Positions 4,008-61,350 of a stretch of 64,000 nucleotides of DNA are shown one piece after another. A program made the position numbers and the translations under genes. The stretch spans positions 11,126 to 75,125 of the forward strand of contig JBCCXA010000010.1 of the NCBI GenBank assembly GCA_039192515.1, read 5' to 3'. The notes beneath the pieces were generated by a model. It was given only the letters and a program-made list of their open reading frames with translations, was not told where the DNA came from and searched no databases. The DNA is from Verrucomicrobiota bacterium (GTDB lineage: Bacteria > Verrucomicrobiota > Verrucomicrobiia > Methylacidiphilales > JBCCWR01). Position 1 is the first letter of the stretch. Each line of letters starts with the position of its first letter.

Positions 4008-4236
4008 TATCTTTTCCTTATCTCATTTCTTTGAATCAATCGGAGGAAACATTCATGGTGACGCACAATTCACGCGATAGAAATCTACAAAATGATTGCC
4101 TTATGGCTTGCCCCCTTGCTTTAAGATAAAACCGAGGCTACTATGAAGCTATTAAAACTACAAATTTTTATGGTTTTATCCTACCCATAAAATTATAAGA
4201 AGTTGCATAATTTTATATCTAGTATAAGATTCTTAT

Positions 4237-16742: not shown

Positions 16743-16761
16743 CCCTAAATTAAAATAAACT

Positions 16762-17403: not shown

Positions 17404-17411
17404 CCAAAGCT

Positions 17412-21017: not shown

Positions 21018-21022
21018 CTAGC

Positions 21023-23301: not shown

Positions 23302-24270
23302 TTACTTTTTTCGCGTAAGTCGCCAATTGAAGGCATTTACGCCTCTAATTGAACGACGTTGACTTTCTCTCTTAACCAAAGTGTCATCCACCCCTATCGT
23401 CTTAGTCTTATCATCATCAGTAGTATTGGATGATAGTGCACTGCTTCGCTTTGGCGCAGGAAGCGGTTTTACTATTTTAGGGACTTCTTGGAAAGGCGCC
23501 GTGCCTCTCGTGCTCTTATCTATGTTCTGGGGTACTGGTGCAGCTGATGTTAAAGCTGAAAGACTCTTGTTCTTAATGGTGGCATTTGCACGAAGCAATA
23601 CACTACCTACATAGATAGCATCTCCTGGAACCAATAAAGCATCCTCAACCTTTTCCTCGCGAAAATAGATACCATTGGTAGAGCCTAGGTCTAATACCTG
23701 TATAGTATTTTTAGTTACAGATACAGAGCAATGTCTCCGTGAAATTGAATGATGGGGAATAACTAATTCTGCAAACTCAGGCGTAGCACCAATAATCACA
23801 GTCCCTTTTTTTAACTCAAAAATATAACCTTTTAGCTCTGTATTCTCTGCTTCTAGGTATAGGGTATAGCGCCTAAAATCAGGCAATAAAACCGTTTGCT
23901 TTTTTTTGTCTACTCCATCAGACAAATCATCCCCTGTCATCTGCTGGATATGGCTTAACAACAACGCATTAGCAGGAAATTTTTCTGCTAACTTCCCAAA
24001 CTCAAACAACACCTCTCTAGTTGTAACTTGACAGCTTACCCTATCAGACACTTCTCCCAAACGCCATTCAACCTTTGATTTTTCCCAGGCTAGCATTCCT
24101 AACACGGCTACTCGATGGCTCAGAGACCTCGTAAAGGCACGGGTCACCAAGCCTTTGGTTAGATAAATTTCACCGATATCTGGCACGTCTAAACGCTCTA
24201 CGTATAGACACCCCGTCTCCGCTTTAGGCCCAGCAAGTTGTAGGTTTTTTATCAGATTAGAGTTAGCCAT
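23302..24270 (-). CDS. FHA-domain protein
   Basis: IGATPEFAELVIPHHSISRRHCSV..LDLGSTNGIYF..GDAIYVG is an FHA core in the C-terminal half of a 322-aa protein. Confidence 0.75.
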   Translation of the reverse strand: MANSNLIKNLQLAGPKAETGCLYVERLDVPDIGEIYLTKGLVTRAFTRSLSHRVAVLGMLAWEKSKVEWRLGEVSDRVSCQVTTREVLFEFGKLAEKFPANALLLSHIQQMTGDDLSDGVDKKKQTVLLPDFRRYTLYLEAENTELKGYIFELKKGTVIIGATPEFAELVIPHHSISRRHCSVSVTKNTIQVLDLGSTNGIYFREEKVEDALLVPGDAIYVGSVLLRANATIKNKSLSALTSAAPVPQNIDKSTRGTAPFQEVPKIVKPLPAPKRSSALSSNTTDDDKTKTIGVDDTLVKRESQRRSIRGVNAFNWRLTRKK

Positions 24271-24435
24271 AGTCTCCTATCCTCCCCCTCGCAGCTTTCC
24301 CGTATTTTGTTAATATAAGCTACAATTGACATTAGATCGAGCTTTTTAAGTTCTATCTAAAAAAGTTTAGAGCTTATCAAGGCAGTATTTTGCAGAGGCT
24401 ATGCAAAATAACACAAATATGGCGTAATACCAAAG

Positions 24436-25404
24436 TCAACGTTTAATACTGGCCATGACAAGTGCTTCAGGTCCCTCAGCTTGCATAATCAAATTCCCAC
24501 GCCTGTCTAACTGTAGATCATAACCGCCAACACTAATTTTGCCACGCAGTAACCCATAGAGCTCTTGTGAACCAATTTTTATACGATTTTGGCCTCTCTC
24601 CAAAAACAGCTCATCTTGCGCTTTTGTAATAGTGCTTTCAACGCCCCTGGAGACAAAAGAATAAGAGGCACCTGACTCTAGTTGATCTTTAAGGGCTGGA
24701 TATAACAACATACCAAAATGGAACATCTTGGGTTTCCACCATTTCGCTGTCCAAACCTTATTATTTTCATCAAAATCTACATCAGCTTTCCTCAAAAAAC
24801 CCTTTTGCTTGGCAATATCTTCAACTGGAAAATTGCCAGCCTTATTGTTTAAACTCTTAACATCTACAGGCTGTGCTTGCTCGATTACCGGTAATGCTTG
24901 CGCTTCTTTGGCAGTTGTTTCAGCTCGGGCCGGCACCTCTTCACTCCAAGAAACAAGAACTGGCCGCTGGGGATCTTGAACTTTATTCGCAATAAGTGAA
25001 ACCTCTCTATCTAGCTTTGCAGGAAGAGCTTTCAAAGACTTTTCTTGCATGGCACTAGCTTTTACCTCATCAGCAGTTGTATAAGCTCTACTTTGGGTTT
25101 CAGATTGAACTAGCGGCTTAGACTCCATGGGCTTATTGAGAGATTTCGGCTCCTTAGACTCTGGTAAAGTTTTTGCAAAGTGAGGCCCTGGCTTTGGGAG
25201 AGCATCTGTTACTGCATAGCCTTGAACATCACTCACCCCTCTAGCTAAGAAATACTCCTGCGCCAATTTCTTCTCCTGGGCTAAAATATCAGCCCAAGGG
25301 GAATGATGAGGTAATAATTTAGCCTCGCTAGTAGGGATTTGATCTCGAGTTTGCCCAGCTAACCTAAAATAAGATGTAAGTACAGATGGCTTCACACCTT
25401 CCAT
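24436..25404 (-). CDS. Hypothetical protein (Pro/Lys/Glu-rich N-half, globular C-half)
   Basis: 322-aa ORF co-directional with the FHA gene. No family was recognised. Confidence 0.5.
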   Translation of the reverse strand: MEGVKPSVLTSYFRLAGQTRDQIPTSEAKLLPHHSPWADILAQEKKLAQEYFLARGVSDVQGYAVTDALPKPGPHFAKTLPESKEPKSLNKPMESKPLVQSETQSRAYTTADEVKASAMQEKSLKALPAKLDREVSLIANKVQDPQRPVLVSWSEEVPARAETTAKEAQALPVIEQAQPVDVKSLNNKAGNFPVEDIAKQKGFLRKADVDFDENNKVWTAKWWKPKMFHFGMLLYPALKDQLESGASYSFVSRGVESTITKAQDELFLERGQNRIKIGSQELYGLLRGKISVGGYDLQLDRRGNLIMQAEGPEALVMASIKR

Positions 25405-26649: not shown

Positions 26650-26734
26650 GGAAGGGTGGCAGAGTGGACGATTGCACCGGTCTTGAAAACCGGCGTGCCG
26701 CGAGGTACCGTGGGTTCGAATCCCACCCCTTCCG
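26650..26734 (+). tRNA. tRNA-Ser (anticodon UGA)
   Basis: Folded by hand. The acceptor is GGAAGGG/CCCTTCC with discriminator G. The anticodon arm is CCGGT-CTTGAAA-ACCGG, there is a long variable arm, and the T arm is GTGGG-TTCGAAT-CCCAC. No CCA is encoded. Confidence 0.95.
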
Positions 26735-50506: not shown

Positions 50507-51058
50507 TCAGGCGCTCATTTCAGCATGAGAAAGCTCAAGCTCCTTGCTAATAGTAAATTTGATAATAGTCCCCTGGCCTACCTTGCTCTGAGCAACCCAT
50601 ACTCTACCTTGGTGCTGTTTTACCAGCGTCTCAACAATCGCCAAACCCGCACCAGAACCTTTTATTTTGTTATTATTATGAGCCTTTTTGAATAGAGCAA
50701 AGACCTTTTGCTGCATCTCAGGCTCTATACCTATACCATTATCTATCACAGAAAAGAGATAATATTTTAAATCATCTTCATATTTAATAAGAATTTGAGG
50801 CCTATCTTTATCACAATACTTAATAGCATTCGCTATGAGGTTTTGAAACAAGATGAGAATAGAAGTCTCATGACATGTGATATGAGGTATTTCCTGCACC
50901 TCAATCACGGCACCAGAGTCTTTGATTTGCTTTTCTAATAGTGTTTTAGCTTCGGCAATAAGTCCTGAAAGATCGCAATTGGAAAAGACAATATCCCTAC
51001 GAGCTCTTCGAGATAGGGTGAGAAGATATATACGCACCGAAAGATTTCCAGGACGCAT
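50507..51058 (-). pseudogene. C-terminal fragment of a sensor histidine kinase (end of HisKA helix 2 + HATPase_c; no phospho-acceptor His)
   Basis: N-box FQNLIANAIKYC, G1 VIDNGIGI and G2 GSGAGLAIV. The frame is closed by TAG immediately upstream of the first Met, and no H-box is present. Confidence 0.75.
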
Positions 51059-51066
51059 CTACTTTT

Positions 51067-51630
51067 TTGCGAACTTTAACTACCTCCGAGCAAAAGAAAA
51101 AAATAGAACAGGAGGTGGATGAACTAATCCAAGAATCATCCAAGCCAGCGGAAGCCGCCAATACTAAAAGAACTGATCTCAAGAGAGATATCTATCTAGC
51201 TGAAGACTTAGCGATGCGAGAGATTGAACAAGAATTTGAAGTTAAAACGAATAGACAGGTTGCGTTCGGCTCCATGGATGCAGGTATCGACGGCATGTTT
51301 GCCAAGAACGGAAAAGGTTATGGAATCGAAGTGAAATTTGTCTGTAATACCCTCTCCAGAAATGTTATCAATCAGGCTGCAGGAATAGGAAATCAGCTAT
51401 TTGAAAGGTATGGATGGAAGAACTTTGATATGATTATCGCAGTTGTCCTCGACAATCAGAATCCAGTAGAGGTCCAAAAGCAGAGGAACCAAATACAGGA
51501 ACTAGTTAATGAAAAAGGTGATGGCTATCATTGTCGAGTTTACGAGTATGGCGAGCTTCTCAAAAAATGCGGCATCGATAAAAATGGATATAGATCTTTC
51601 AAAGTCTATAGAAGAATTAGAAGGAGATGA
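51067..51630 (+). CDS. Hypothetical protein with PD-(D/E)xK (Mrr-like) nuclease-type motif; possible orphan toxin domain
   Basis: REIEQEFE..SMDAGIDGMF-x9-YGIEVKF fits E..D..(E)xK. The start is uncertain (TTG 51067, GTG 51115 or ATG 51213). The 3' end overlaps the next ORF by 47 nt. Confidence 0.45.
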   Translation: MRTLTTSEQKKKIEQEVDELIQESSKPAEAANTKRTDLKRDIYLAEDLAMREIEQEFEVKTNRQVAFGSMDAGIDGMFAKNGKGYGIEVKFVCNTLSRNVINQAAGIGNQLFERYGWKNFDMIIAVVLDNQNPVEVQKQRNQIQELVNEKGDGYHCRVYEYGELLKKCGIDKNGYRSFKVYRRIRRR

Positions 51631-52096
51631 TTGGGGTCCACCTGATTTTGATTCTCATGTTGTTAGCACGTGCCATGAGTTACGTAAAAAGCCAATCAAA
51701 GATTTTGAGATAGAAGAACTGCGATTCATGATATTACAGAACGTAGGATCTGAATATTTAGCTCCATTAGCTTGCGTAGACCACGACCCTATAGACCAGT
51801 GGGCACCCGTGCATGATTATTTAGTCTACTATAGCTTATGCCTACACATCGGACCAGAGAACGAAGAAGGAGCAGATTTGTTTTATGTAGATATTGCGAC
51901 TCCACAGGCCATAAAACACTTTCAGTTGGGCAAAACCGTTTCGGATAAAAGCATTATTTTGAATCCCTATTCATGGCCGGAGGTATTAACCAGAGTAAAG
52001 AGAATGATTAATCATGTTTCGGGCGTGTCCTGGCAGCAAGTGGCAGAGGAATTAGACAAAAGTTTTAGTTGGGAATTTAGTGGTTATCCGTCATAA
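51584..52096 (+). CDS. Chimeric immunity protein: CdiI-like N-terminal half fused to an Imm8-like domain
   Basis: IEELEGDDWGPPDFDSHVVSTCHELRKKPIKDFEIEELRFMILQNVGSEYLAPLA matches my recollection of the CDI-immunity family. LHIGPENEEGADLFYVDIATP..WQQVAEELDKSFSWEFSGY matches the Imm8 pattern. ATG 51584 is chosen over 51509. Confidence 0.6.
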   Translation: MDIDLSKSIEELEGDDWGPPDFDSHVVSTCHELRKKPIKDFEIEELRFMILQNVGSEYLAPLACVDHDPIDQWAPVHDYLVYYSLCLHIGPENEEGADLFYVDIATPQAIKHFQLGKTVSDKSIILNPYSWPEVLTRVKRMINHVSGVSWQQVAEELDKSFSWEFSGYPS

Positions 52097-52101
52097 AGAT
52101 A

Positions 52102-52168
52102 CAGAACAAGCCAGTTGAGCTAATCTGCAAAACGCGTTGCGTTTTTTGATTAGCTTTTAGATCGCCTC
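52102..52168 (+). repeat. attC-like site 1 (degenerate R')
   Basis: R'' CAGAAC is at 52103-52108. Arms are GAGCTAATC / GATTAGCT with an inner hairpin AAAACGC-gtt-GCGTTTT. ATC (52162-52164) sits where GTT is expected, and the site may double as a terminator. Confidence 0.55.
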
Positions 52169-52219
52169 CTACCCTATAATATTTAAAACACCGTGAGCAG
52201 TTAGCTCACTTCTAACGAT

Positions 52220-52555
52220 ATGAATACAGAAGAGGAAGATCAGTCAGCACATGTAGCCGGCTTCATCACGTTTTCCGGATCAATTCCAGAATTGAGAGCG
52301 ATGATCCGTGATGCTGGTCTCACACCTTCGAAGGCAGATTCGCACCATATTCACATTGAAGAGTTTTCTCACGTCATGCTGAGAGAGTACTCGAAGTTTG
52401 AGTATATGATCGAAGCAGATGCAGATACACCAGATGAGATGGTTGAAGATATGAAGAGATTCTCTTCAGCGCTATCTGCTGAAAGAATTGGATACAACTA
52501 TGAAATCTATGATTCTTCAAATGAGCTAGTTTGCCAGAAGGAGGAGAAGTTTTGA
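52220..52555 (+). CDS. Cassette ORF, hypothetical acidic protein
   Basis: 111-aa ORF bounded by attC-like sites 1 and 2. No family was recognised. Confidence 0.55.
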   Translation: MNTEEEDQSAHVAGFITFSGSIPELRAMIRDAGLTPSKADSHHIHIEEFSHVMLREYSKFEYMIEADADTPDEMVEDMKRFSSALSAERIGYNYEIYDSSNELVCQKEEKF

Positions 52556-52556
52556 A

Positions 52557-52631
52557 TCATATCAAGGCAGAGCTCACAATGGCTACTCATCGCTTCGCTC
52601 TTCGCAGCCACGTGAGTCTTTGACGTTAACC
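52557..52631 (+). repeat. attC site 2
   Basis: The R''-like box is CATATCAAGGCAG (ATC for AAC). Arms are CTCAC..TGGCT / AGCCA..GTGAG. R' GTTAACC is at 52625-52631. Confidence 0.65.
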
Positions 52632-52649
52632 ATACGAGAAAGTACGCGC

Positions 52650-53408
52650 ATGGACGAAATTGAAAAAATTATAAGTCGATATAATGAAGAATATGTAGGC
52701 AAGAGCCTAGAATCGTTAGATGATATAAATAGGTTCACTGGTACTTTCGTAAAGGATGTAGCAGAGATTTATGATTGCATCACGAGAATGCGAAACATCG
52801 ATCGCAACCCAACTGGATTCAATCTAGACGATGCTCCTATTTTGGGGCTGTTAACCAGAATATGGAAACTACTCAAAGAAATCGTTATCTACTACGAAAA
52901 AGATAACGCTGAAATCATAAGTATATTAGAAAGACCACTGATAGAAGCGGCAGTTACGGCTGAATATTTACTAATGAGCGATTCTGCTGTTATTAAAGAC
53001 TATAGAAAATGCTCATATAAAGATCGATTAAGAATACTCCGAGAATTAAAAGAAGGTTCTAGGTTTTTCGAAACAAAGGCCGGAAAACGGTTGCTCAAAT
53101 CAGTTCAAGAGAAAATGGATTTAGAAGGTTTCTCTGAAGACGACTTCAAGAAACAAAAGAAAAATCGATGGAAGCTTCAAGGAAAAACTTTCTTCGACAT
53201 ATTCGGAGAGGTTACAGACGAAGACCTTTACAAGTACACTTATGGCATGATGTCTGAGTCTATTCATGGATCTTGGAACGAATCTATGGATTGGTGCCTC
53301 CAAAAAAACGAAGATTCAACATTCACAGTTTATCCGTTCTATCATGGAGCTGATGTTAGATATATATGCCCAACACTAAAGTTTTGCAATGAGTCATACA
53401 GACTTTGA
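52650..53408 (+). pseudogene. Cassette gene (possibly DUF5677-like) truncated by an in-frame TGA
   Basis: ATG 52650 lies 25 nt after R' GTT. After TGA (53406-53408) the same frame stays open for 38 more codons (LKRIDCEDENMVNVLNWIERVNTRIFMIFDQKYDGPNG) and ends at TAA 53523-53525 inside the R'' box of attC 3. Confidence 0.6.
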
Positions 53409-53519
53409 CTAAAACGAATTGATTGCGAGGATGAGAACATGGTCAATGTCCTCAATTGGATTGAAAGAGTTAATACGAGAATATTTATGATTTTTGACCA
53501 AAAATACGATGGGCCAAAT

Positions 53520-53597
53520 GGCTAACAAAGCCAGCCAGAGGGACCAAAAAACCGCCGCGTCGCTCTGGTTTTTCGGCCCCTGCTGGCAGCGTTCGGG
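53520..53597 (+). repeat. attC site 3
   Basis: R'' GCTAAC is at 53521-53526. Arms are GCCAGCcAGaGGGaCCaAAAAACC / GGTTTTTcGGCCCCTGCTGGC. R' GTTCGGG is at 53591-53597. Confidence 0.8.
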
Positions 53598-53605
53598 GAT
53601 AAAAT

Positions 53606-54028
53606 ATGAAAGCTGATCAGCGCATATTTGGTGAAATCTATGATGAAAGCAAATCTCATCGTATAACATTAGTATATGATGAAACATCACGTGGCGGGTA
53701 TGATTTCCTTAGGATAGACTGGCATACCCTAAGAGACAATGAATGGCGTATTCATCATACATTATCGCAGGATGCCTTCTCAAAGAATTCCAATGAACAA
53801 ATATGGGTTAGTGACATTCATAGTTTTGATCCTGAGACCGCTAACTGTATTCTGAAAATTGCAGAGGGAGAAAAACAATTAGATGTAGGACATATTTCGT
53901 ATATCTATTCTTGGAGAATTTGGGATATTAAAGATAACAAAGAAGTAAAGCTAATTAAGGTGTGCGAGAACATATGGGAGGGACCCATACTATTAGAAAA
54001 AGTAGAGCACACCGAACATGCCAGTTGA
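53606..54028 (+). CDS. Cassette ORF, hypothetical protein
   Basis: 140 aa with ATG 15 nt after R' GTT and the stop inside the next attC. No family was recognised. Confidence 0.6.
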   Translation: MKADQRIFGEIYDESKSHRITLVYDETSRGGYDFLRIDWHTLRDNEWRIHHTLSQDAFSKNSNEQIWVSDIHSFDPETANCILKIAEGEKQLDVGHISYIYSWRIWDIKDNKEVKLIKVCENIWEGPILLEKVEHTEHAS

Positions 54029-54135
54029 CAAAATGGCTCATACTCCGCGCTGTGATTTATCAGTATGAAAGATGAACTTCAACCCGTGAGATTTATCTGA
54101 TATTATCAGAGCCATTTCTCACTTTTACGTTCGGT
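54012..54135 (+). repeat. attC site 4 (long, ~124 bp)
   Basis: R'' CCGAAC is at 54012-54017. Arms are GTtGAcAAAATGGCTC (54024-54039) / GAGCCATTTCTCAC (54109-54122). R' GTTCGGT is at 54129-54135. Confidence 0.8.
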
Positions 54136-54151
54136 AGAAGAATAGAAAATT

Positions 54152-54892
54152 ATGAAAATTAAACTCGCAGCAGTCGGCATGTTTTTTTTGTCGTTATCGT
54201 GTTTTGCTCAAAGTGAGGCTATCAAGACAGAGGACGCGGACGCGAAAATTATTGCGGAAGTGCTCGGACAGAAGATCACCGCTGCCGAAAAGGACAATCT
54301 CCAGGGGTTGATCTTTGGAGCTCTATTACAGGAGTTTGCGAAGGAAAATAAGATCGAGCCCACAGAGGCGGAACTGGACGCCTTCATCGTGCAGACCCAG
54401 AAGCAAGAGAAGCGAAATCAAGTAGAATTCGAAGCAGATCGGGAAAGACTGCGGCGAGAGCTGAGGTCTACCGACCTCTCGGATGAAGAGCGGGAGGATA
54501 AGGAATCTCAACTCCAGACGGTTGAGAGCATTCTGAAGGCCAATCGCGAGACAAAAAGAATGACGAAAGGGATGGAAGCAGAGATGCACTCCATGATGTG
54601 CCAAATGGCGCAACAGTTTGTCAACTCGTGGAAGATCAACAAGGCCCTATACGAAGAATACGGAGGTCGAATCATCTTTCAGCAGGCTGGAGTTGAGCCA
54701 CTGGATGCATATCGGGATTTTCTGAGGAAGAAGGAGGAGCAGGGAGCATTTCAGATCCTCGATGAGAGCCACAGGGCACAGTTCTGGAATTACTTTACGA
54801 ATGACAACATGCATACTTTCTACGACAAAAACGACGGAGCGAAATTTATACATACCCCTTGGTGGATGGTGGACAAATCACCAGAAGAATAA
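54152..54892 (+). CDS. Cassette ORF, secreted coiled-coil-rich protein
   Basis: Signal peptide MKIKLAAVGMFFLSLSCFAQSEA. Codon usage is visibly more G+C-rich than in neighbouring cassettes. Confidence 0.6.
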   Translation: MKIKLAAVGMFFLSLSCFAQSEAIKTEDADAKIIAEVLGQKITAAEKDNLQGLIFGALLQEFAKENKIEPTEAELDAFIVQTQKQEKRNQVEFEADRERLRRELRSTDLSDEEREDKESQLQTVESILKANRETKRMTKGMEAEMHSMMCQMAQQFVNSWKINKALYEEYGGRIIFQQAGVEPLDAYRDFLRKKEEQGAFQILDESHRAQFWNYFTNDNMHTFYDKNDGAKFIHTPWWMVDKSPEE

Positions 54893-54896
54893 AATC

Positions 54897-54952
54897 ACCG
54901 AACAAGACAGTGGTGGCAACGGCTAAGGCCGTGCCACACTTCGAAGTTCGCT
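54897..54952 (+). repeat. attC site 5 (short family)
   Basis: R'' CCGAAC ends at 54903. Arms are GTGgTGGCAaCGGC (54910-54923) / GCCGTGCCACAC (54928-54939) with two bulged bases. R' GTTCGCT is at 54946-54952. Confidence 0.85.
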
Positions 54953-54958
54953 AATAAA

Positions 54959-55330
54959 ATGGCCCTGATCTTTAAATTGGAATGCGATAAGTGTGATTTC
55001 ACCGTAGGTCCTACTGGTGGAGGACACCTTTACGTTACTCTAGATGATGGAAGCCGTAAGCCTTTACCTCATCCGGCTGAATTTTCGACAGCATTAGATG
55101 CAACTGGTAAAGAGTTACCAGAGTTACAGAAGGAAAAGCGAATTGGCAGTGAACTCCAGTATCTTTGTTTAGCATGTGGCCATGATTTATATCTCGATCC
55201 GAGCAAAGATGTTTTAGTTTGTCCTGTTTGTACGTCTGATAACCTCATCGACATGCAGAAAGTTAAAAAGAAAGCCTGCCCAAAATGTAAGGAAGGCCAT
55301 CTAAGGCAAGAACACATAGGTATTTCATGA
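54959..55330 (+). CDS. Cassette ORF, double zinc-ribbon protein
   Basis: 123 aa with four CxxC pairs: CDKC, CLAC, CPVC and CPKC. Confidence 0.6.
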   Translation: MALIFKLECDKCDFTVGPTGGGHLYVTLDDGSRKPLPHPAEFSTALDATGKELPELQKEKRIGSELQYLCLACGHDLYLDPSKDVLVCPVCTSDNLIDMQKVKKKACPKCKEGHLRQEHIGIS

Positions 55331-55340
55331 ATGTAATAAA

Positions 55341-55406
55341 AGCGAACAATCCGATACATCGAATTCACTCCCTGCGGTCGTTCTTGGCTGATCGGTGACG
55401 TTAGTC
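55341..55406 (+). repeat. attC site 6
   Basis: R'' GCGAAC is at 55342-55347 and R' GTTAGTC at 55400-55406. The 27-nt core AATTCACTCCCTGCGGTCGTTCTTGGC (55362-55388) is identical to that of site 10. Confidence 0.8.
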
Positions 55407-55413
55407 AGAATAA

Positions 55414-55938
55414 ATGAAATCAATCATACCATCCAAGGAAGAGTGTTTCTACATCCTCGAAATGTTGGAGTCCTCACTGATTGATTTCAGCTACACTCAT
55501 CCTTGGGCTGACCGAATAATCGGATTGATTGACATACCCCCATCTTGGCTCTGCGACGTCTCTACAAAAAAATACACTGGAGACCAAAAGAAAGCATTTA
55601 GGGAATATGTCTTCAGTGAGCCATTTGAAGAAACACCAGTTGATATTGATAAATTCCACGTCGGGTGTCTTTGGATTAGATACGAAAGAAGAGAATTGTC
55701 TTGGGCTTCCTTCCTTCAACTGTCAGGCGAGTATCTCGACGCTGCGGGGGGAGACTGGGATTGCGAAACCCCATACCACTACCTCAATACTATTGAAGAT
55801 GCCTATTTCAGCTACGAATCCGAGGAGCGCACAAAGGCATTATATCTTAAAGATCATGATGTGTTGCCATGGGCGAATCTAGCAAAACAGAAACTCGAAC
55901 CTTTTTTAGAAACACGAATGACTAACAAGGCAGGATAG
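55414..55938 (+). CDS. Cassette ORF, hypothetical protein
   Basis: 174 aa with ATG 14 nt after GTT and the stop inside attC 7. No family was recognised. Confidence 0.6.
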   Translation: MKSIIPSKEECFYILEMLESSLIDFSYTHPWADRIIGLIDIPPSWLCDVSTKKYTGDQKKAFREYVFSEPFEETPVDIDKFHVGCLWIRYERRELSWASFLQLSGEYLDAAGGDWDCETPYHYLNTIEDAYFSYESEERTKALYLKDHDVLPWANLAKQKLEPFLETRMTNKAG

Positions 55939-55974
55939 GCAACGCCTTTGGCGCGCCTACCTTTGACGTTCGGG
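55920..55974 (+). repeat. attC site 7 (short family)
   Basis: R'' ACTAAC is at 55921-55926. Arms are GGaTAGGCaaCGC / GCGCGCCTACC. R' GTTCGGG is at 55968-55974. Confidence 0.8.
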
Positions 55975-55992
55975 CAATAGAATATTTCAAGA

Positions 55993-56361
55993 ATGAATCC
56001 TGATTTAAATTTCTTTTTTATGCTATTGATTAGTTCGGTATTCATTTTCTTCAGTTACAGAATTATCAAAAGGCACATGCTCAATATTGAGCTAGATAAA
56101 CATCTAAATGATAAAAATTATGTAGTTCATGAGATTACTTCTTATGTGTGTCTGAGAGACGAAGATGTCCCAAAAAGTTTATTAGATTTTTACTATTCTC
56201 AGTATCCCAGAATTATGAGATGGCACAGCCAGTGGCACATGATATACAGAGTAACGATATTAGATAGTAATTCGTCACCAGAATATAGGTGGTATTATCT
56301 TGATTCTAGAGCTTCAAAGCATAATCGTATTAAAGAATTAAAACCCGAACCTGGCAGTTGA
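55993..56361 (+). CDS. Cassette ORF, N-terminally membrane-anchored hypothetical protein
   Basis: 122 aa with the TM helix FFFMLLISSVFIFFSY. The stop lies inside attC 8. Confidence 0.55.
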   Translation: MNPDLNFFFMLLISSVFIFFSYRIIKRHMLNIELDKHLNDKNYVVHEITSYVCLRDEDVPKSLLDFYYSQYPRIMRWHSQWHMIYRVTILDSNSSPEYRWYYLDSRASKHNRIKELKPEPGS

Positions 56362-56411
56362 CCTAATCGCGTACCCTAGCGGGTTCGCTCCAGGTCACTT
56401 TTACGTTCGCT
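56344..56411 (+). repeat. attC site 8 (TACCCTAGCGGGTT-core family)
   Basis: R'' CCGAAC is at 56345-56350. Arms are GTtGACCT / AGGTCAC around the core TACCCTAGCGGGTTCGC. R' GTTCGCT is at 56405-56411. Confidence 0.8.
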
Positions 56412-56419
56412 GAATAAAT

Positions 56420-56797
56420 ATGAGTTTGATCTTAGATTGGCTGACCCTGAGCTCGAAAGTGATCGATTCGCTTGAGGAAGCGTTAAGAAGCTACGAACCT
56501 GATCAAGTCGAACTCAACGCTATCGCTTGGCAGATCGCGGAACTAAAGAAGGTAAATGAAAAAGTTAAAAAAGATGGATTCTTCGACTCAAGTTACACCG
56601 AAGCTTACCTGATCAAAGCTACATCTCGGGAACATCTGAATATTCAAACCGCGATATTAGAAGAATTAGGCTACCTATTCGATATAGCTCAAAGAGCTGT
56701 TCGATTAGGCCCCTCGAAGGCAAATGACATTCTTAAGATTAAACAGAGCGAACAAGGCGGTGAGCTCAATTCCGAGAGGCTGCGCTCCTCGTCTTGA
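56420..56797 (+). CDS. Cassette ORF, hypothetical helical protein
   Basis: 125 aa. The C-terminal 16 residues (EQGGELNSERLRSSS) are encoded by attC 9. Confidence 0.55.
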   Translation: MSLILDWLTLSSKVIDSLEEALRSYEPDQVELNAIAWQIAELKKVNEKVKKDGFFDSSYTEAYLIKATSREHLNIQTAILEELGYLFDIAQRAVRLGPSKANDILKIKQSEQGGELNSERLRSSS

Positions 56798-56815
56798 GCT
56801 ACCTTAGCGTTCGCT
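56747..56815 (+). repeat. attC site 9
   Basis: R'' GCGAAC is at 56748-56753. Arms are GGTgAGCTCAA / CTTGAGCTACC. R' GTTCGCT is at 56809-56815. Confidence 0.8.
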
Positions 56816-56818
56816 GAA

Positions 56819-57088
56819 ATGAAAAAACCTCCCACAGAGATAGATGGAGCTAAGGTTATTGAGTGGGCCTGGTCTGGAGATACCCCATTTGGCCTAGTGC
56901 CAGGAGCTGAACCCCCTGAGATATATGGATTGGCGATAGCTACCTACGACAACCAATCATACTACCGTTTTTCGTGCGATAGCGATTGGCATACTACTCA
57001 AGACAGTGTGTATGACTCTATTGAAAAAGCTAAGTCCTTGTTACCTAAGCAGTATTGCGATGTTGAAGCATTCTGGAGAAAATCATAA
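56819..57088 (+). CDS. Cassette ORF, small hypothetical protein
   Basis: 89 aa with ATG 10 nt after GTT. No family was recognised. Confidence 0.55.
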   Translation: MKKPPTEIDGAKVIEWAWSGDTPFGLVPGAEPPEIYGLAIATYDNQSYYRFSCDSDWHTTQDSVYDSIEKAKSLLPKQYCDVEAFWRKS

Positions 57089-57094
57089 AATATT

Positions 57095-57160
57095 AGCGAA
57101 CAAACACGTAGTGCCAATTCACTCCCTGCGGTCGTTCTTGGCACACGCTTAACGTTCGAC
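57095..57160 (+). repeat. attC site 10
   Basis: R'' GCGAAC is at 57096-57101. Arms are CGTaGTGCCAA / TTGGCACACG. The core (57116-57142) is identical to that of site 6. R' GTTCGAC is at 57154-57160. Confidence 0.85.
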
Positions 57161-57168
57161 AGAAATTT

Positions 57169-57687
57169 ATGAAAAAGAAACTAACTCTACTCGCACTTGC
57201 TCTCATACCTACTGCTTGCCTACTCGGAAAGACCATATCCCTCGATGGAGGGAGTGTAGCATTCGATGCACCGGATGAATTCACTCCAGTGCCTCAAGAG
57301 ATAATTGACATAAAGTATCCCTCTTCGAGAGCCCCGAAGTATGTGATTGGGAATAAGTCTGCAGCTACGACGATTGCCTATGATATTAAACCGCACTCAA
57401 TTCCTCAGCACAAAATTGAGGAAGCTAGAAAGTCATTCAGAGATTTGTTTCCTCGCATAATTCCAGGACTTCAGTGGAAAGAGAATAAAGTAATCACACT
57501 AGCAGGACAAAAGTGGGGATACATGGAAATGACATCGACTGCTATCGATACGAATATTTACAATATCATGCTCTTTACAGGATACAAAGGTAAGATGTTG
57601 GTCTTCAATTTCAACTCAATAAGAGAGGAGTTCCCGAAATACGAAAAAGCCCTCAGGGATTCTCTAAATTCGATTGAAATCAAATAG
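57169..57687 (+). CDS. Cassette ORF, secreted DcrB/DUF1795-like protein
   Basis: Signal peptide MKKKLTLLALALIPTACLLG. The family assignment is tentative, based on overall pattern only. Confidence 0.5.
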   Translation: MKKKLTLLALALIPTACLLGKTISLDGGSVAFDAPDEFTPVPQEIIDIKYPSSRAPKYVIGNKSAATTIAYDIKPHSIPQHKIEEARKSFRDLFPRIIPGLQWKENKVITLAGQKWGYMEMTSTAIDTNIYNIMLFTGYKGKMLVFNFNSIREEFPKYEKALRDSLNSIEIK

Positions 57688-57727
57688 TCGAACAAGACGT
57701 GTGAGGCAACGAGCGCAAGCGTTCGTC
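57688..57727 (+). repeat. attC site 11, internally deleted (3' arm missing)
   Basis: TCGAAC-AAGACGTGTGAGGCAACGAGC-GCAAGC-GTTCGTC keeps R'', the L''-like arm and R' (57721-57727), but no complementary 3' arm. It is only ~40 bp long. Confidence 0.5.
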
Positions 57728-57737
57728 GAAATATTAA

Positions 57738-58024
57738 ATGGCATTACAAGTTTATATTTCAGATCCTAAAGGTGGACTTGAGAAACATCAGATCTTACCT
57801 GAGCTATCTCATGAACAACATCAAGAGTTATTTTCAAACTCAAAGATGAGTATTCAGACATATCTTATTCCCACCAGGAGCTAGAAGCTCTTGTTTCAGA
57901 GATAGAACATGCAACTATGAATTTCGATATGACATCACCCGTAAAAGCGTTTTTGAGCCCTTTTCATTCATTATCTGTTATTGCTCTGACTAGGGAGAAG
58001 AATATAGTATTAATCTCAGATTAA
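57738..58024 (+). pseudogene. Cassette gene disrupted by a frameshift
   Basis: The frame from ATG 57738 gives 48 aa and ends at TAG 57882-57884. A second frame is open from 57815 to TAA 58022-58024 (..HQELEALVSEIEHATMNFDMTSPVKAFLSPFHSLSVIALTREKNIVLISD) and stops right before attC 12. One indel in the 57815-57884 overlap would join them. Confidence 0.6.
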
Positions 58025-58030
58025 ATTAGA

Positions 58031-58100
58031 GACGAACATGACAGTTTACCAAATACGTTTACCCTAGCGGGTTTCGCTTTTGGTGACTTCGACATTCTGC
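58031..58100 (+). repeat. attC site 12 (TACCCTAGCGGGTT-core family, mutated R')
   Basis: R'' ACGAAC is at 58032-58037. Arms are GTtTACCAAAtACG / CGCTTTTGGTGAC. ATT (58094-58096) replaces GTT. Confidence 0.65.
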
Positions 58101-58186
58101 AAAAAAGTCATCGACCATGAAAAATCTCGAATATTTAAACACAGAGAGTAAACAAACCTTGCGAGAAGGAATATCCGAGTTGCGGC

Positions 58187-58654
58187 ATGCCGAAGGCGCC
58201 GGAACTTCTGAATGACATGGATGCCCACGATGCAATCCATGTGCTTTTCGGCTGCCCAACGAACTTGGCAGGTGAGATCGTTGCACATATTTGGACTGCT
58301 TTCGGAACGACCGTATCAATAAAGGATATGCGCCGGGTCAACCAACACCGCGATCACAGGCAAGTATTGGAACAGATTGGGCATCGAAAATTATTTCTTA
58401 CATGGATTCGCAGTCTGCCGCGAATCCTCAAGGTGATCATCCGCACAAAGAAGATGAAGTCGCGTTGGCCTGTGGAAGAGGTTGATGCATTCGCTGACCG
58501 ACCTCTCGACGAATTGCGAAAGGAATTCTCGATCAGGCTCATTCCTTTCGATCCAGGGGAAGGCGGATCAGGAGGTGCAGCACTCCGAAACTTGAATCGT
58601 AAGACAGAACAAGGCAGTGGACTCAACGCGCTGCCGCGCGTGAGTCACTTTTAA
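58187..58654 (+). CDS. Cassette ORF, Coq4-like HDxxH protein (possibly frameshifted at the 5' end)
   Basis: DAHDAIHVLFGCPTNLAGEIVAHIW resembles the Coq4-family HDxxH-x(10-13)-E metal motif. A 32-codon frame from ATG 58117 overlaps out of frame. The C-terminal 16 residues are encoded by attC 13. Confidence 0.55.
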   Translation: MPKAPELLNDMDAHDAIHVLFGCPTNLAGEIVAHIWTAFGTTVSIKDMRRVNQHRDHRQVLEQIGHRKLFLTWIRSLPRILKVIIRTKKMKSRWPVEEVDAFADRPLDELRKEFSIRLIPFDPGEGGSGGAALRNLNRKTEQGSGLNALPRVSHF

Positions 58655-58662
58655 AGTTCGCC
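58604..58662 (+). repeat. attC site 13 (short family)
   Basis: R'' CAGAAC ends at 58610. Arms are GTGgACTCAaCGCG (58617-58630) / CGCGTGAGTCAC (58637-58648). R' GTTCGCC is at 58656-58662. Confidence 0.85.
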
Positions 58663-58667
58663 ACAAA

Positions 58668-59141
58668 ATGAACCATTTTCTACTACCTGTCCTTATCGTC
58701 ATATCGGTCTTCACTGGAGTTTGTTGTGCCGAAGGCTTAGCCCCAACAAATCTCACTGTGATAGTTTGTGATTCTACCAACAAGGTTTTGGATACTGTTA
58801 TTGTTCCGGACGACAAGAAGTCCAGATCAGTGAAATTTACTCTACCTGAGGGAACAGACGAGATTCGAGTTTTCGCACTCGGAAAGCGTCAGCACAAAGA
58901 CATGCAGACAGGCTACTATATCACCGGCCGACCTGATGATAAGAAGTGGATGGGGTTGGGCTACGTCGAGGCGCATGTCGAGAAAGGCGTTTTGACCGGA
59001 ATCGATGGTAACGGATTCGGACAGATCAAAATTGACAAGAATCTCAAGAAGCAAGTCTTGACCGACATCAAAGTTGGGACGACGGCCACGATCACAACCG
59101 TAATAATCAATGGCGAACAAGGCAGTGGTGGCAACGGCTAA
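58668..59141 (+). CDS. Cassette ORF, secreted hypothetical protein
   Basis: Signal peptide MNHFLLPVLIVISVFTGVCCAEG. The C-terminal EQGSGGNG is encoded by attC 14. Confidence 0.6.
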   Translation: MNHFLLPVLIVISVFTGVCCAEGLAPTNLTVIVCDSTNKVLDTVIVPDDKKSRSVKFTLPEGTDEIRVFALGKRQHKDMQTGYYITGRPDDKKWMGLGYVEAHVEKGVLTGIDGNGFGQIKIDKNLKKQVLTDIKVGTTATITTVIINGEQGSGGNG

Positions 59142-59167
59142 CGCCGCGCCACACTTTGACCTTAAAT
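59112..59167 (+). repeat. attC site 14 (short family, mutated R')
   Basis: R'' GCGAAC is at 59113-59118. The 5' arm GTGGTGGCAACGGC is identical to that of site 5. CTT (59161-59163) replaces GTT. Confidence 0.7.
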
Positions 59168-59597
59168 GTCCACTCAGGAATAGACTATAAGCCAAGATAA
59201 AGTAATAAAAATACTTGCAATAGCAAATATAATCTCTCTGCCTGTTGTTGTAGTTCTGAGTTTCTATCTTGATTCTTCTTTGCCGCCATTACTTGTAGAC
59301 TTCTTGGAGCAAGAAATGGAACGAGAAAATACCAATGTAGAATTGGTAGTTAGTTTTCTTACAATTCCGGTTTTATTAGTTCATCTTGTAGCACTATTCG
59401 GAGTTCTGCTATTCAAACAGTGAGCACGTATTCCTCTACTATTTACAAGCATACTATTTTATGTGCTTACTCCTTTTTTAGGGCCCTACGTGGATCACGG
59501 TATTTCGGCGACATTAGATAGTTTATCTTCGTTTATGCTGGGGGCGCTGTTAGTGCTATTGTTTTTCGGAGAATCAACATTTAACAAGTTAAGCTAG
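59166..59597 (+). pseudogene. Cassette gene for a ~4-TM membrane protein with two in-frame stop codons
   Basis: Hand translation gives one frame: MSTQE-TAG(59181)-TISQDKVIKILAIANIISLPVVVVLSFYL..LVALFGVLLFKQ-TGA(59421)-ARIPLLFTSILFYVLTPFLG..LGALLVLLFFGESTFNKLS-TAG(59595). It is absent from the ORF track because each piece is shorter than 60 aa from a start codon. Confidence 0.65.
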
Positions 59598-59637
59598 CAG
59601 GACGCCGCAAGCGGCGCCTCTGCTTAAAGCGTTATCT
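59579..59637 (+). repeat. attC site 15 (short family)
   Basis: R'' TTTAAC is at 59580-59585. Arms are TTAAGCtAGcAGGaCGCCGC (59589-59608) / GCGGCGCCTCTGCTTAA (59611-59627), which pair perfectly once the 3 bulged bases are removed. R' GTTATCT is at 59631-59637. Confidence 0.85.
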
Positions 59638-59642
59638 GATAA

Positions 59643-60098
59643 ATGTCATATATCCTGACAAAACAAAGAAATGCCAACGTCAAAGCTGCATTTGAAAAAT
59701 ATGCTTTGTATTTAAAAGAAAATGAAAGGTCATTCCCCAAGGGTGCATATGAACTTGCTACTAGTGATTGGTGGTTTAATTTTAATAATCACAGATGTCC
59801 ACATGACTCTTGGTTAGAGAAATTTGAGATTATGGAACACAGCCAAGGCGAGAGGAATGAGATAAGGTGGTCAAACATCGTTATTACTCTACTAGGCGCT
59901 TATCATGACTCTCTGCTTACCATTGAATATTCAGCAGTTTGCAATTATAGACTAGAGTGTGATTCAGGACATGGAGATTGGCTTTTTGACCAGTTTCTGT
60001 GTTCGGATGATGGCGATGTCATACATGAAATTGAGTGGTCTAGATCTCACTGGATAATTCACTGCAAAGATATTGAGTTTAGCTATAAGAAAATTTAA
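59643..60098 (+). CDS. Cassette ORF, hypothetical cytoplasmic protein (immunity-protein-like architecture)
   Basis: 151 aa with ATG 12 nt after GTT. The family is not securely recognised. Confidence 0.55.
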   Translation: MSYILTKQRNANVKAAFEKYALYLKENERSFPKGAYELATSDWWFNFNNHRCPHDSWLEKFEIMEHSQGERNEIRWSNIVITLLGAYHDSLLTIEYSAVCNYRLECDSGHGDWLFDQFLCSDDGDVIHEIEWSRSHWIIHCKDIEFSYKKI

Positions 60099-60167
60099 GA
60101 TAATAAGTCAGTTCACCAAATGCGCTTACCCTGGCGGGTTTCGCTTTTGGTGACTTCAAGCTTAGAG
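60098..60167 (+). repeat. attC site 16 (TACCCTGGCGGGTT-core family, both R boxes mutated)
   Basis: GATAAT (60099-60104) replaces xxGAAC. Arms are GTtCACCAAAtGCG / CGCTTTTGGTGAC. CTT (60161-60163) replaces GTT. Confidence 0.6.
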
Positions 60168-60179
60168 TAATATAAAAAC

Positions 60180-60596
60180 ATGAGTTATTTCATGACAGCG
60201 ATTGGTGAAAAACCAATTATTGAAGGAATTGAAACTAAATCAATTGACGATTCTCAGGATTATCTTAAAAACTTAAAGCCTTATTTTTCTGAAACGTATC
60301 AGGATGAAAGAGTATGGGTCTTAGAGTACTTCGATAAAGATTATAATGATTTTATTTCACTCTCTGAAAGCACATTTCATGAAACACAAGACTTTGAAGC
60401 AACACTTTTATATAAAACCGTAAAGTCTCTGGAACAGAATCAAAACTCTTTCCACATTTGGTGGGCTAGCAACAACTCTCACACCGATGTAGAAGAAGTC
60501 AGTACTTTTGAAGAAGCAATTGAACTAATCAAAGAGCAAATTAACAGAGCTGAAGAAATCGGTATAAGGGCAACTCTAACAAACGGATCAACCTAA
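60180..60596 (+). CDS. Cassette ORF, hypothetical acidic protein
   Basis: 138 aa and very AT-rich. The stop lies inside attC 17. Confidence 0.55.
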   Translation: MSYFMTAIGEKPIIEGIETKSIDDSQDYLKNLKPYFSETYQDERVWVLEYFDKDYNDFISLSESTFHETQDFEATLLYKTVKSLEQNQNSFHIWWASNNSHTDVEEVSTFEEAIELIKEQINRAEEIGIRATLTNGST

Positions 60597-60649
60597 TAGC
60601 ATCCATTCGCTACGCTCATTCCAGCTATAGGTTATCTAGGACGTTAGGT
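60573..60649 (+). repeat. attC site 17
   Basis: R'' CTCTAAC is at 60574-60580. Arms are GATcAACCTAaTAGC / GCTATAGGTTATC. R' GTTAGGT at 60643-60649 matches the canonical GTTRRRY. Confidence 0.85.
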
Positions 60650-60666
60650 CAAAAAAAGGAAAATAT

Positions 60667-60930
60667 ATGATTAAATTTAAAGACTTTGTTCCAAAAGAAG
60701 TAACTAAAGCTGGATTCTTTAGCTCAGCAAGATTGGAAGAATTAAATGATTCTTTAAAAAGAGCTAATATTTGGATTGAAAATCAAAACATAAACGTTCT
60801 TAACATAGAAACTGTTGTTTTACCAAATATTCATAGGTCATCAGAAGAAGGATCTACTGACACAGATATTACAACTTCTGGGGACATGTCATCAAATTGG
60901 CATCAATTTATTAGGGTTTGGTACAAGTAA
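60667..60930 (+). CDS. Cassette ORF, small hypothetical protein
   Basis: 87 aa with the RBS-like AAAGGAAAATATATG. No family was recognised. Confidence 0.55.
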   Translation: MIKFKDFVPKEVTKAGFFSSARLEELNDSLKRANIWIENQNINVLNIETVVLPNIHRSSEEGSTDTDITTSGDMSSNWHQFIRVWYK

Positions 60931-60942
60931 AGCACTAAAAAC

Positions 60943-61019
60943 GACCTAACAATTAGATCAACCTAATAGCTTCCACTCGCTGCGCTCGCTCCAGCTATAG
61001 GTTATCTAGGACGTTCTGT
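60943..61019 (+). repeat. attC site 18 (last in array; near-duplicate of site 17)
   Basis: R'' ACCTAAC is at 60944-60950. CAACCTAATAGC..CCAGCTATAGGTTATCTAGGAC is shared with site 17. R' GTTCTGT is at 61013-61019. Confidence 0.85.
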
Positions 61020-61119
61020 GAAAAAAGAATTACCAGATAGAGTTATTAGTCACCTTAACAGAGGCGATCCCGCCAAAGAAAAATCATCCCTTTCTTCTCA
61101 GATACTACTCATATGAAAA

Positions 61120-61350
61120 TTAACGGGACAGCAATGCTTCGCAAGTAACAGTAAATCCACGAACTCCCGTTTCCATATCTATGATAATCTTTAAGATGTA
61201 ATTAGCATCCGAAATAACTTTGTGGGTGTGAGCAACCCATTTAGCAGAATCATTCAGCCTATTAATGACCAGGTAGCTTGTAGCTGCTACGGCTAATAGG
61301 ATGGCCATCATGGCAGTATAACCGGTGACTATTTGGTGCTGTAATTTCAC
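61120..61350 (-). pseudogene. N-terminal fragment of a CHASE3-domain sensor protein
   Basis: KLQHQIVTGYTAMMAILLAVAATSYLVINRLNDSAKWVAHTHKVISDANYILKIIIDMETGVRGFTVT matches the start of CHASE3 (TM helix, W-V-x-H-T, ETGxRG[YF]). It then diverges (CEALLSR) and stops after 76 codons. Confidence 0.7.

Follow-up and report, generated by a model that had tools for sequence, protein, structure and literature searches.

The block at positions 51059-61019 of the window, by which we mean the whole 64,000-nucleotide stretch of a Verrucomicrobiota bacterium analysed here (GCA_039192515.1, contig JBCCXA010000010.1), is in our reading an integron cassette array without an integrase, an attC-site cluster that has no integrase (CALIN), of a verrucomicrobial integron lineage; we put the probability of this reading at about 0.9. 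Between 52.1 and 61.0 kb, 18 attC-like imperfect hairpins lie one behind each short open reading frame (ORF) of the plus strand, all in the same orientation, and the array as a whole stands between two fragments of a histidine kinase gene. By the working definition a CALIN has two or more attC sites on the same strand, neighbouring ones being under 4 kb apart, with no intI gene within 4 kb (or 10 kb) (PMC4889954). Here the 18 sites share the plus strand with a spacing of no more than about 1 kb, and since no integrase is found within 51 kb upstream or 5.9 kb downstream of the array, its assignment to this class is supported.

The first-pass annotation of this stretch had proposed 18 co-oriented attC sites of the R''-L''...L'-R' layout. 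Both proposals are borne out, the former by plus-strand sites that are recognised at E<0.01 in the block only, the latter by the boxes, the spacer, the strand-asymmetric bulges, kin sites linked to integron integrase (IntI) genes and a match to the aadA1 site, all described below. The boundaries it gave were broadly accurate; with site lengths now at 41-125 nt, site 1 measures 66 nt (52101-52166) and site 17 begins at 60574, 16 nt earlier than proposed. The close spacing it noted between GTT and the next ORF start also holds, although the distance, given as 8-25 nt, is 7-22 nt and applies to 14 of 17 sites. Stop codons of the upstream ORFs do fall inside the repeats, as it had said, at eight sites, with two more on the first base of the site, and cassettes of 345-1102 bp encoding mostly orphan proteins agree with its description of cassette size and of largely unrecognisable products. 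Folding of the bottom strand, which it had suggested as a check, likewise favours attC sites. Its reading of the block as a CALIN thus stands, whereas the interruption of a kinase gene, the decay and the verrucomicrobial attC lineage had been overlooked; the location of the array between kinase fragments, the five mutated attC cores and the four disrupted ORFs are new.

Nearly all sites share one layout. The 5' arm opens with a 7-nt R'' box ending in AAC, followed by five unpaired nucleotides (usually AAGGC or AAGAC) and three base pairs (usually AGT/ACT); further inward come a single bulge at position 16, a stem of 5-6 bp, a second bulge at 22/23, a further stem and a variable loop, and in the 3' arm five unpaired nucleotides precede a 7-nt R' box beginning with GTT. 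Published attC sites are defined by R boxes of the form RYYYAAC/GTTRRRY, a central spacer that is unpaired over 5-6 nt in each arm, a variable terminal structure, and extrahelical bases in the R''-L'' arm (position 16 and 23/24, sometimes also 20), the distal one being a conserved bottom-strand T; they are 57-141 nt long and their bottom strands are on average 2.12 kcal/mol stabler than the top ones (PMC5027507). In a fixed-register alignment of 17 sites the unpaired spacer is 5 nt on each arm, and the bulges are confined to the 5' arm of the plus strand, the first one at position 16. As the unpaired bases are always on this arm, the two strands of the sites are not equivalent. The second bulge is an A of the AA pair at 22/23, hence a bottom-strand T, in sites 2, 4, 5, 7, 13, 14, 17 and 18, and site 15 is a three-bulge variant. 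Spacer length, bulge arm, bulge positions and distal T therefore agree with the published definition, and the bulge positions match those reported for attC_aadA7 (PMC5027507). AAC and GTT are both present in 13 of the 18 sites, R'' and R' are fully complementary in sites 4 and 9, and 17 sites (55-125 nt) accord with the known length range.

Folding and covariation point the same way. The bottom strand folds with z <= -2 at 13 of the 18 sites and is stabler than the top strand at 16 with RNA parameters (mean -3.2 kcal/mol) and at 14 with DNA parameters. With the sites in fixed register 63.7% of the cells of the structure are paired, compared with 28-43% in slid registers, and none of 500 shuffles reached the covariation score. 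This register was obtained after trimming each site to 30 + 26 nt, which made the alignment gapless, as full-length MAFFT alignment misaligned the 3' arms. Ungapped and gapped palindrome scans did not part real sites from background and were uninformative because the arms of attC are short, bulged and split by the spacer; a covariance model was used instead. The motif GAACAAGRCAG, with up to one mismatch, occurs 8 times in the 64 kb against 2.6 expected, and seven of these matches lie in the block, all on the plus strand.

The covariance model, R1, was built from 17 trimmed sites of the window and run unfiltered over all of it. At E<0.01 its matches are confined to the block and to the plus strand, the window including 54 kb outside the block, and at E<=1 it has none in chromosomal loci totalling 1.29 Mb from 80 Verrucomicrobiota genomes. 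The first-pass annotation had named dispersal between unrelated genes in both orientations, as in repetitive extragenic palindromes (REP) and bacterial interspersed mosaic elements (BIME), as an outcome that would speak against attC sites; what we find is a single orientation and no copy outside the block, either in the window or in the 1.29 Mb of related DNA. In plasmids R100 and pSE08-00436-1 the top match of R1 is attC_aadA1, recovered over its full length on the coding strand (23.1 bits, E 6e-4), a site whose sequence is found exactly in 1,962 plasmids. An Rfam scan returned tRNA only, Rfam having no attC family. The 18 sites fall into the sub-families 5/7/13/14, 6/10, 8/12/16 and 17/18, with a mean pairwise identity of 0.54. 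Sites 6 (55361-55387) and 10 (57116-57142) have in common an identical 27-nt loop segment, AATTCACTCCCTGCGGTCGTTCTTGGC, on stems that differ, despite the supposedly variable nature of the terminal structure.

The kinship of the sites is seen in metagenomes. The 5'-arm motif of sites 5, 13 and 14 (GAACAAGRCAGTGGNNNCAACG) occurs exactly in at least 120 metagenome contigs (L083-L202), in which R1 finds complete sites, including the 3' arm and the GTT that were not part of the search pattern. Among 78 distinct metagenome sites 86.3% of cells are paired, versus 27-42% in slid registers, and 17 of 20 pairs have changed on both sides; this alignment was fitted to the model, which favours the structure. 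Contigs that carry several sites always have them co-oriented. Their likeness to the window is limited to 41-85 nt of attC, at up to 100% identity, and the flanking ORFs are unrelated; that one recombination site is joined to different genes marks a cassette system.

Four of the at least 120 contigs (L090, L102, L139 and L187) encode a tyrosine recombinase that ends in ...HxLRHSFATH...LLGHASVETTQIYTHV...SPLDxL. In L139 only a fragment of 222 aa is present; the other three proteins are full-length and reach 357-372 bits against NCBIfam TIGR02249 'integron integrase' (cut-off 265). Homologues annotated as integron integrase come from Lentimonas sp., Puniceicoccaceae bacterium K14, Cerasicoccus frondis (WP_309387231.1), Opitutaceae and Verrucomicrobiota, and a further homologue, MEM0965419.1, heads a complete integron in a metagenome-assembled genome (MAG; GCA_038744685.1, contig JBCDMB010000005.1, here L203), whose array has R1 sites on the expected strand. 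In L090, L102, L139, L187 and L203 alike IntI is divergent from the cassettes, which is the canonical layout. As the kin sites adjoin IntI genes with verrucomicrobial homologues, the attC family of the window belongs to a known verrucomicrobial integron lineage, which, judged by these sequences, would be the one with Opitutales/Puniceicoccales-type IntI within Verrucomicrobiota.

These verrucomicrobial integrases are about 399 aa long (L102 2914-4113, L187 969-2168, L203 4789-5988). TIGR02249, which has 315 positions, matches them from residue 89 on, and the N-terminal extension of about 88 aa is conserved in homologues (56-98% identity, full coverage). The attC type of sites 5, 7, 13 and 14, which we call type A (CAGTGG...CAACG 5' arm), recurs at 88-100% identity across at least 120 contigs from many metagenomes beside unrelated ORFs, and so behaves like a phylum-level counterpart of the Vibrio cholerae repeat (VCR). 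Being tied to a verrucomicrobial IntI clade, it could serve as a marker for cassette mining in the phylum.

No phage-integrase domain is present in any of the 47 ORFs of at least 150 aa in the window (Pfam), and tblastn of the window with two verrucomicrobial IntI proteins gave noise only (E>2). Neither an integrase nor a remnant of one was found in the 51 kb upstream of the array, in the 2.98 kb downstream to the window end, or in the 2.9 kb past that end covered by Logan contig L082, which encodes a flavoprotein reductase, a small protein and a YkuD transpeptidase; the downstream DNA covered is 5.9 kb in total, short of the 10 kb of the stricter definition. At the left junction there is neither an attI nor a G|TT signature. 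These results uphold what the first-pass annotation had claimed on the missing recombinase, the missing attI-like region at the 5' end and the integrase-less state of the cluster. An intI pseudogene is likewise not recognisable near 95% of CALINs (PMC4889954). A complete integron would carry IntI next to attI and the first cassette, and here the upstream neighbour is a truncated histidine kinase gene, with no match to IntI. Sedentary chromosomal integrons were defined by Cury et al. by more than 19 attC sites or by presence in all genomes of a species (PMC4889954), and the array has 18 sites with the low mutual identity given above. Size places it among the larger CALINs, of which 83% carry under six attC sites and 6.6% more than ten (PMC4889954).

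The flanks of the array record how it may have come to its place. Both are on the minus strand and look like pieces of one CHASE3 histidine kinase gene. Aligned to the 452-aa CHASE3-HisKA-HATPase protein P0006, the left fragment, which has an in-frame stop just upstream, corresponds to residues 286-451 and the right one to residues 14-77, so that the fragments share strand and collinear order and about 208 codons (78-285) are gone between them. No kinase coding sequence was found in the DNA at 61020-61119 that separates site 18 from the right fragment. As the array lies between two collinear fragments, we propose that it arrived by insertion into the kinase gene, with loss of these codons. Both outer junctions, namely that of the C-terminal fragment with cassette 1 and that of site 18 with the N-terminal fragment and the ABC-F gene, are reproduced at 100% identity in independent Logan contigs. 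The contigs of run SRR22824305 break inside site 7 (L001, which ends at 55957) and inside site 14 (L082, which starts at 59131); repeated attC sites break up short-read assemblies, and for the order of the middle cassettes one depends on the MAG assembler. The window is chromosomal, with gyrB, gyrA, der, gltX and a urea carboxylase/allophanate hydrolase cluster among its genes. Its proteins have the NCBI accessions MEM9444892-954. Every one of them that was checked, GyrA included, is a singleton when about 15 billion sequences are compared at 90% identity, and the top relatives of its ABC-F protein in GTDB, at 57% identity, are from Chthoniobacterales MAGs and are not syntenic.

The crossover triplet is mutated at five sites (R' of site 1; R'' of site 2, ATC; R' of site 12, ATT; R' of site 14, CTT; and both boxes of site 16, R'' AAT and R' CTT), and in four cassettes the ORF is disrupted: in cassette 3 by a premature stop, in cassettes 12 and 13 by frameshifts and in cassette 15 by two in-frame stops and the lack of a start. 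Site 11, in which the cores are intact and most of the arms gone, is probably a deleted attC site. With five cores mutated and four ORFs disrupted the array looks stranded and decaying, which suggests that it is no longer turned over; some of the triplet and ORF lesions are possibly errors of the MAG consensus.

By analogy with the rest of the family, a cassette unit would consist of a short, mostly promoterless ORF followed by attC, the bottom strand of which, when single-stranded, would fold into a hairpin whose R and L boxes are paired, whose 5-nt spacer stays unpaired and in which one arm carries extrahelical bases. IntI would bind this hairpin and cut between C and AA of the bottom-strand 5'-AAC-3' (top-strand G|TT); recombination of attC with attC would excise cassettes as circles, and that of attC with attI would re-insert them in a complete integron. 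As the locus has neither intI nor attI, its cassettes would be mobile only if IntI were supplied in trans, from elsewhere in the genome or by an incoming element, and they would be expressed here only by read-through or from internal promoters; a promoter/terminator scan gave background level and was uninformative.

With both flanks being pieces of one kinase gene, the locus would record the origin of a CALIN by insertion and deletion, and it bears on the question of how CALINs arise, which is still debated. A complete integron may have inserted at about codon 77 of the kinase gene, after which one deletion would have taken kinase codons 78-285 along with intI, attI and the beginning of cassette 1. 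Alternatively, IntI may have catalysed the insertion of a cassette block off site, at an attG or secondary site, followed by imprecise rearrangement or deletion; integrase-mediated insertion at a non-att genomic site with imprecise deletion has been shown experimentally (Loot et al., bioRxiv 10.1101/2022.09.11.507474). Both routes fit, and as there is no G|TT signature at the left junction we do not choose between them. The more specific idea that integrase placed a large multi-cassette block in the host gene by off-site recombination and then drove the imprecise deletion of host DNA is in our view speculative and rather unlikely. If true, it would mean that in environmental bacteria large CALINs can originate by the off-site route, which is known from laboratory work on single cassettes, and that host genes can be inactivated in this way.

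Several observations weigh against the reading of the block as a verrucomicrobial CALIN inserted in a kinase gene. R1 was trained on the window, which makes its scores within the block circular and leaves the negative controls, the metagenome matches and the aadA1 match as the independent ones. It missed the dfrA1 attC of a class 1 integron (L206, about 4113-4207) and is for this reason not a general attC model; it captures only short attC sites of the window's register. Site 11, at 41 nt, is under the published range of 57-141 nt, and sites 2, 6, 11, 17 and 18 fold no better than shuffles. The cores are CGAAC/GTTCG, with G/C at the fourth position in place of the Y/R of RYYYAAC/GTTRRRY, and the bottom-strand base at position 16 is G in sites 17 and 18 only, being mostly C, A or T elsewhere. 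As no orthologue of the kinase exceeds 46% identity, the origin of both flanks from one gene is deduced from their collinearity. For the middle 3.2 kb (55958-59130) the MAG assembly is the single source, and with proteins that are singletons at 90% there is no sister genome to show gain or loss of cassettes.

That the hairpins have no link to integrons, being REP/BIME-like palindromes or else intrinsic terminators in a long cluster of co-directional genes, is hardly credible. They are indeed intergenic, palindromic and richer in GC than their flanks, and the five that fold like shuffled sequence would suit such an origin; yet they are limited to one strand of one 9-kb block and have no counterpart in the 1.29 Mb of related chromosomal DNA, T-tracts are not enriched at them, and their bulges are strand-asymmetric and at the positions known from attC. 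Near-identical hairpins flank unrelated ORFs beside IntI genes, and R1 recognises attC_aadA1. We also regard it as improbable that the split kinase is an artefact, in which the MAG contig would have joined two loci across repeated attC sites. Sites 5, 7, 13 and 14 are repeats of 66-80% identity, and the Logan contigs end at site 7 and restart at site 14, so that the intervening segment depends on the MAG assembler. However, the outer junctions are those that the Logan contigs reproduce, a random mis-join would not yield two fragments of the same strand collinear with one CHASE3-HisKA-HATPase architecture, and each half would remain a CALIN even in the event of a mis-join.

The rival to be taken most seriously leaves the attC sites as they are and concerns what the array does. 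IntI may be encoded elsewhere in the genome and still shuffle the cassettes, in which case the array would be one half of a working integron and integrase-less in a formal sense only. According to Cury et al. (PMC4889954), the replicon encodes IntI in about half of the cases of CALINs, and integrons are split by rearrangements. The AAC and GTT cores are intact in 13 of the 18 sites, and a closely related IntI is found in a MAG and in a Logan contig from the neighbouring run SRR22824304. Against this stand the absence of IntI from the -51 kb and +5.9 kb around the array and the fact that none of the ten NCBI-held IntI homologues that were checked has an accession in the range of this MAG (MEM94448xx-49xx), while the five sites with mutated crossover triplets and the four broken ORFs suggest little recent turnover. 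We therefore hold an integrase acting from elsewhere to be quite possible, with the odds somewhat against it, and retain as the preferred reading a CALIN that seems to be no longer turned over.

The features of the array and its flanks are listed in the table. GC of the cassettes is 33-49%, that of the window 42%. The cassette proteins are mostly orphans, the recognisable ones being an Imm8/CdiI_3 immunity protein and a DUF5677 protein only; PADLOC and NCBIfam gave no match for cassette proteins, and resistance genes are absent among the cassettes. The protein of cassette 4 found itself only in a homologue search, its distant relative in the table having come from the L203 array. At the junction the first ORF of the leading block has neither an ATG nor a ribosome-binding site. 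This block (51067-52096) could be an orphan toxin-immunity module, in which the 187-aa ORF may be a truncated toxin domain.

Table. Positions (in the window) of the attC sites, cassette ORFs and flanking features of the array; bit scores are those of covariance model R1.
Feature	Position	Strand	Description
Histidine kinase C-terminal fragment	50507-51058	-	183 aa, HATPase_c only (Pfam 1.9e-23); left flank of array
Leading block (cassette 1)	51059-52160	+	no attC upstream; two ORFs
Cassette 1 ORF a	51067-51630	+	187 aa, TTG start, no family, possibly 5'-truncated
Cassette 1 ORF b	51584-52096	+	170 aa, Imm8/CdiI_3 immunity protein
attC site 1	52101-52166	+	66 nt; R'' ACAGAAC, degenerate R'; 16.1 bits; from arm alignment and fold
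Cassette 2 ORF	52220-52555	+	111 aa, no family
attC site 2	52557-52631	+	75 nt; R'' degenerate (ATC), R' GTTAACC; 28.3 bits
Cassette 3 ORF	52650-53408	+	252 aa, DUF5677 (Pfam 4e-29); premature stop at 53406-53408, frame continues to attC
attC site 3	53520-53597	+	78 nt; GGCTAAC...GTTCGGG; fold z -2.66
Cassette 4 ORF	53606-54028	+	140 aa, orphan; 31% identical homologue in L203 cassette array
attC site 4	54011-54135	+	125 nt; ACCGAAC/GTTCGGT fully complementary; long variable loop
Cassette 5 ORF	54152-54892	+	246 aa, no significant family
attC site 5	54897-54952	+	56 nt; type A; top score, 54.4 bits; 88-94% identity to attC of many metagenome contigs
Cassette 6 ORF	54959-55330	+	123 aa
attC site 6	55341-55406	+	66 nt; 27-nt loop in common with site 10; weak stem; 23.2 bits
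Cassette 7 ORF	55414-55938	+	174 aa
attC site 7	55920-55974	+	55 nt; type A; 48.1 bits
Cassette 8 ORF	55993-56361	+	122 aa
attC site 8	56344-56411	+	68 nt; 37.4 bits
Cassette 9 ORF	56420-56797	+	125 aa
attC site 9	56747-56815	+	69 nt; AGCGAAC/GTTCGCT fully complementary; 40.7 bits
Cassette 10 ORF	56819-57088	+	89 aa
attC site 10	57095-57160	+	66 nt; 29.7 bits
Cassette 11 ORF	57169-57687	+	172 aa
attC site 11	57687-57727	+	41 nt; cores intact, arms mostly gone; 13.8 bits; fold z +0.63
Cassette 12 ORF	57738-58024	+	frameshift-split
attC site 12	58031-58100	+	70 nt; R' mutated to ATT; 27.9 bits
Cassette 13 ORF	58117-58654	+	frameshift-split (58117-58215, then 58187-58654)
attC site 13	58604-58662	+	59 nt; type A; 33.5 bits; 91% identity to sites in L084, L142, L152
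Cassette 14 ORF	58668-59141	+	157 aa
attC site 14	59112-59167	+	56 nt; type A; R' mutated to CTT; 47 bits; up to 100% identity over 44 nt to metagenome attC
Cassette 15	59166-59597	+	membrane-protein-like frame, two in-frame stops, no start
attC site 15	59579-59637	+	59 nt; bulges at 17, 20, 24; 26.6 bits
Cassette 16 ORF	59643-60098	+	151 aa
attC site 16	60098-60167	+	70 nt; R'' AAT and R' CTT, both mutated; 26.7 bits
Cassette 17 ORF	60180-60596	+	138 aa
attC site 17	60574-60649	+	76 nt; top-strand bulges C16, A22/23 (canonical bottom-strand G, T); 13.6 bits
Cassette 18 ORF	60667-60930	+	87 aa
attC site 18	60944-61019	+	76 nt; 84% identity to site 17; final site of array; 14.3 bits
Unassigned DNA	61020-61119		about 100 nt between site 18 and kinase N-terminal fragment; no coherent frame, no attC
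Histidine kinase N-terminal fragment	61120-61350	-	76 aa, one transmembrane helix and first 35 CHASE3 residues (Pfam 6.3e-08, above cut-off); right flank of array

Elsewhere in the window, a 477-aa ORF at 2574-4007 (minus strand, putative GTG start) is an unusual adenylate kinase with two successive ADK-plus-lid units, the product of duplication or fusion. The plus-strand genes at 16020-22825 form a urea amidolyase-type cluster of two DUF1989 proteins, a 1208-aa urea carboxylase-like biotin enzyme and an allophanate hydrolase, preceded by genes for an NMT1-like binding protein and an ABC transporter. Two adjacent 322-aa ORFs at 23302-25404 (minus strand), one with an FHA domain and one with no family, are neither of them recombinases, and downstream of them is the sole tRNA gene of the window (26650-26734, plus strand).

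The class of element to which this array belongs is already well described, its split-gene context is the sole mildly unusual aspect, and the locus leaves the knowledge of integron mechanism unchanged; what it adds is a large CALIN of 18 attC sites from a Verrucomicrobiota lineage sampled once only. Like known CALINs (PMC4889954; IntegronFinder 2.0, PMC9024848) it has two or more attC sites of one orientation, spaced under 4 kb, and neither intI nor a recognisable intI pseudogene nearby, and its cassettes are mostly without annotated function and free of resistance genes. It differs in being larger than most of them and in being flanked by two pieces of one host gene, which pin down a history of insertion and deletion. 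With the complete chromosomal integrons of Verrucomicrobiota (L203, L102, L187 and L090) it shares the attC family, with 88-100% identity for type A, CGAAC/GTTCG cores and the same register, as well as cassette size and orientation logic and, in L203, a cassette protein of 31% identity. Those integrons, however, have an IntI of about 399 aa (TIGR02249) divergent from the first cassette, in the place of which the window has a truncated kinase gene.

The sites resemble attC_aadA1 and attC_aadA7 of class 1 integrons (In2 on R100) in the succession of R''(7), spacer (5), 3 bp, bulge at 16, stem, bulge at 22/23 and loop, in AAC/GTT, and in being directly 3' of an ORF on the coding strand. There is no likeness in sequence beyond the cores, and the window sites differ in having G/C in place of Y/R at the fourth core position and, on the bottom strand, mostly C, A or T in place of G at position 16. 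The superintegron of Vibrio cholerae is, like this array, chromosomal, with many cassettes of unknown function and a recurrent attC type (type A here, in at least 120 contigs), but the window array has no integrase, its attC sites are heterogeneous (0.54, at least four sub-families) and they number 18 against the criterion of more than 19. Large sedentary arrays tend toward homogeneous attC sites.

Comparable in setting are off-site insertions of cassettes at attG (5'-GWT-3') or secondary sites, and SALINs (Loot et al., bioRxiv 10.1101/2022.09.11.507474). As there, cassettes are found in a host gene away from attI, with attC at the downstream end and none at the upstream junction, and host DNA next to them is missing, a loss that is reported to be a possible sequel of imprecise excision (bioRxiv 10.1101/2022.09.11.507474). 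Unlike these insertions, typically of one or two cassettes, the array of the window has 18, no G|TT on the left, and about 100 nt of unassigned DNA after the last attC.

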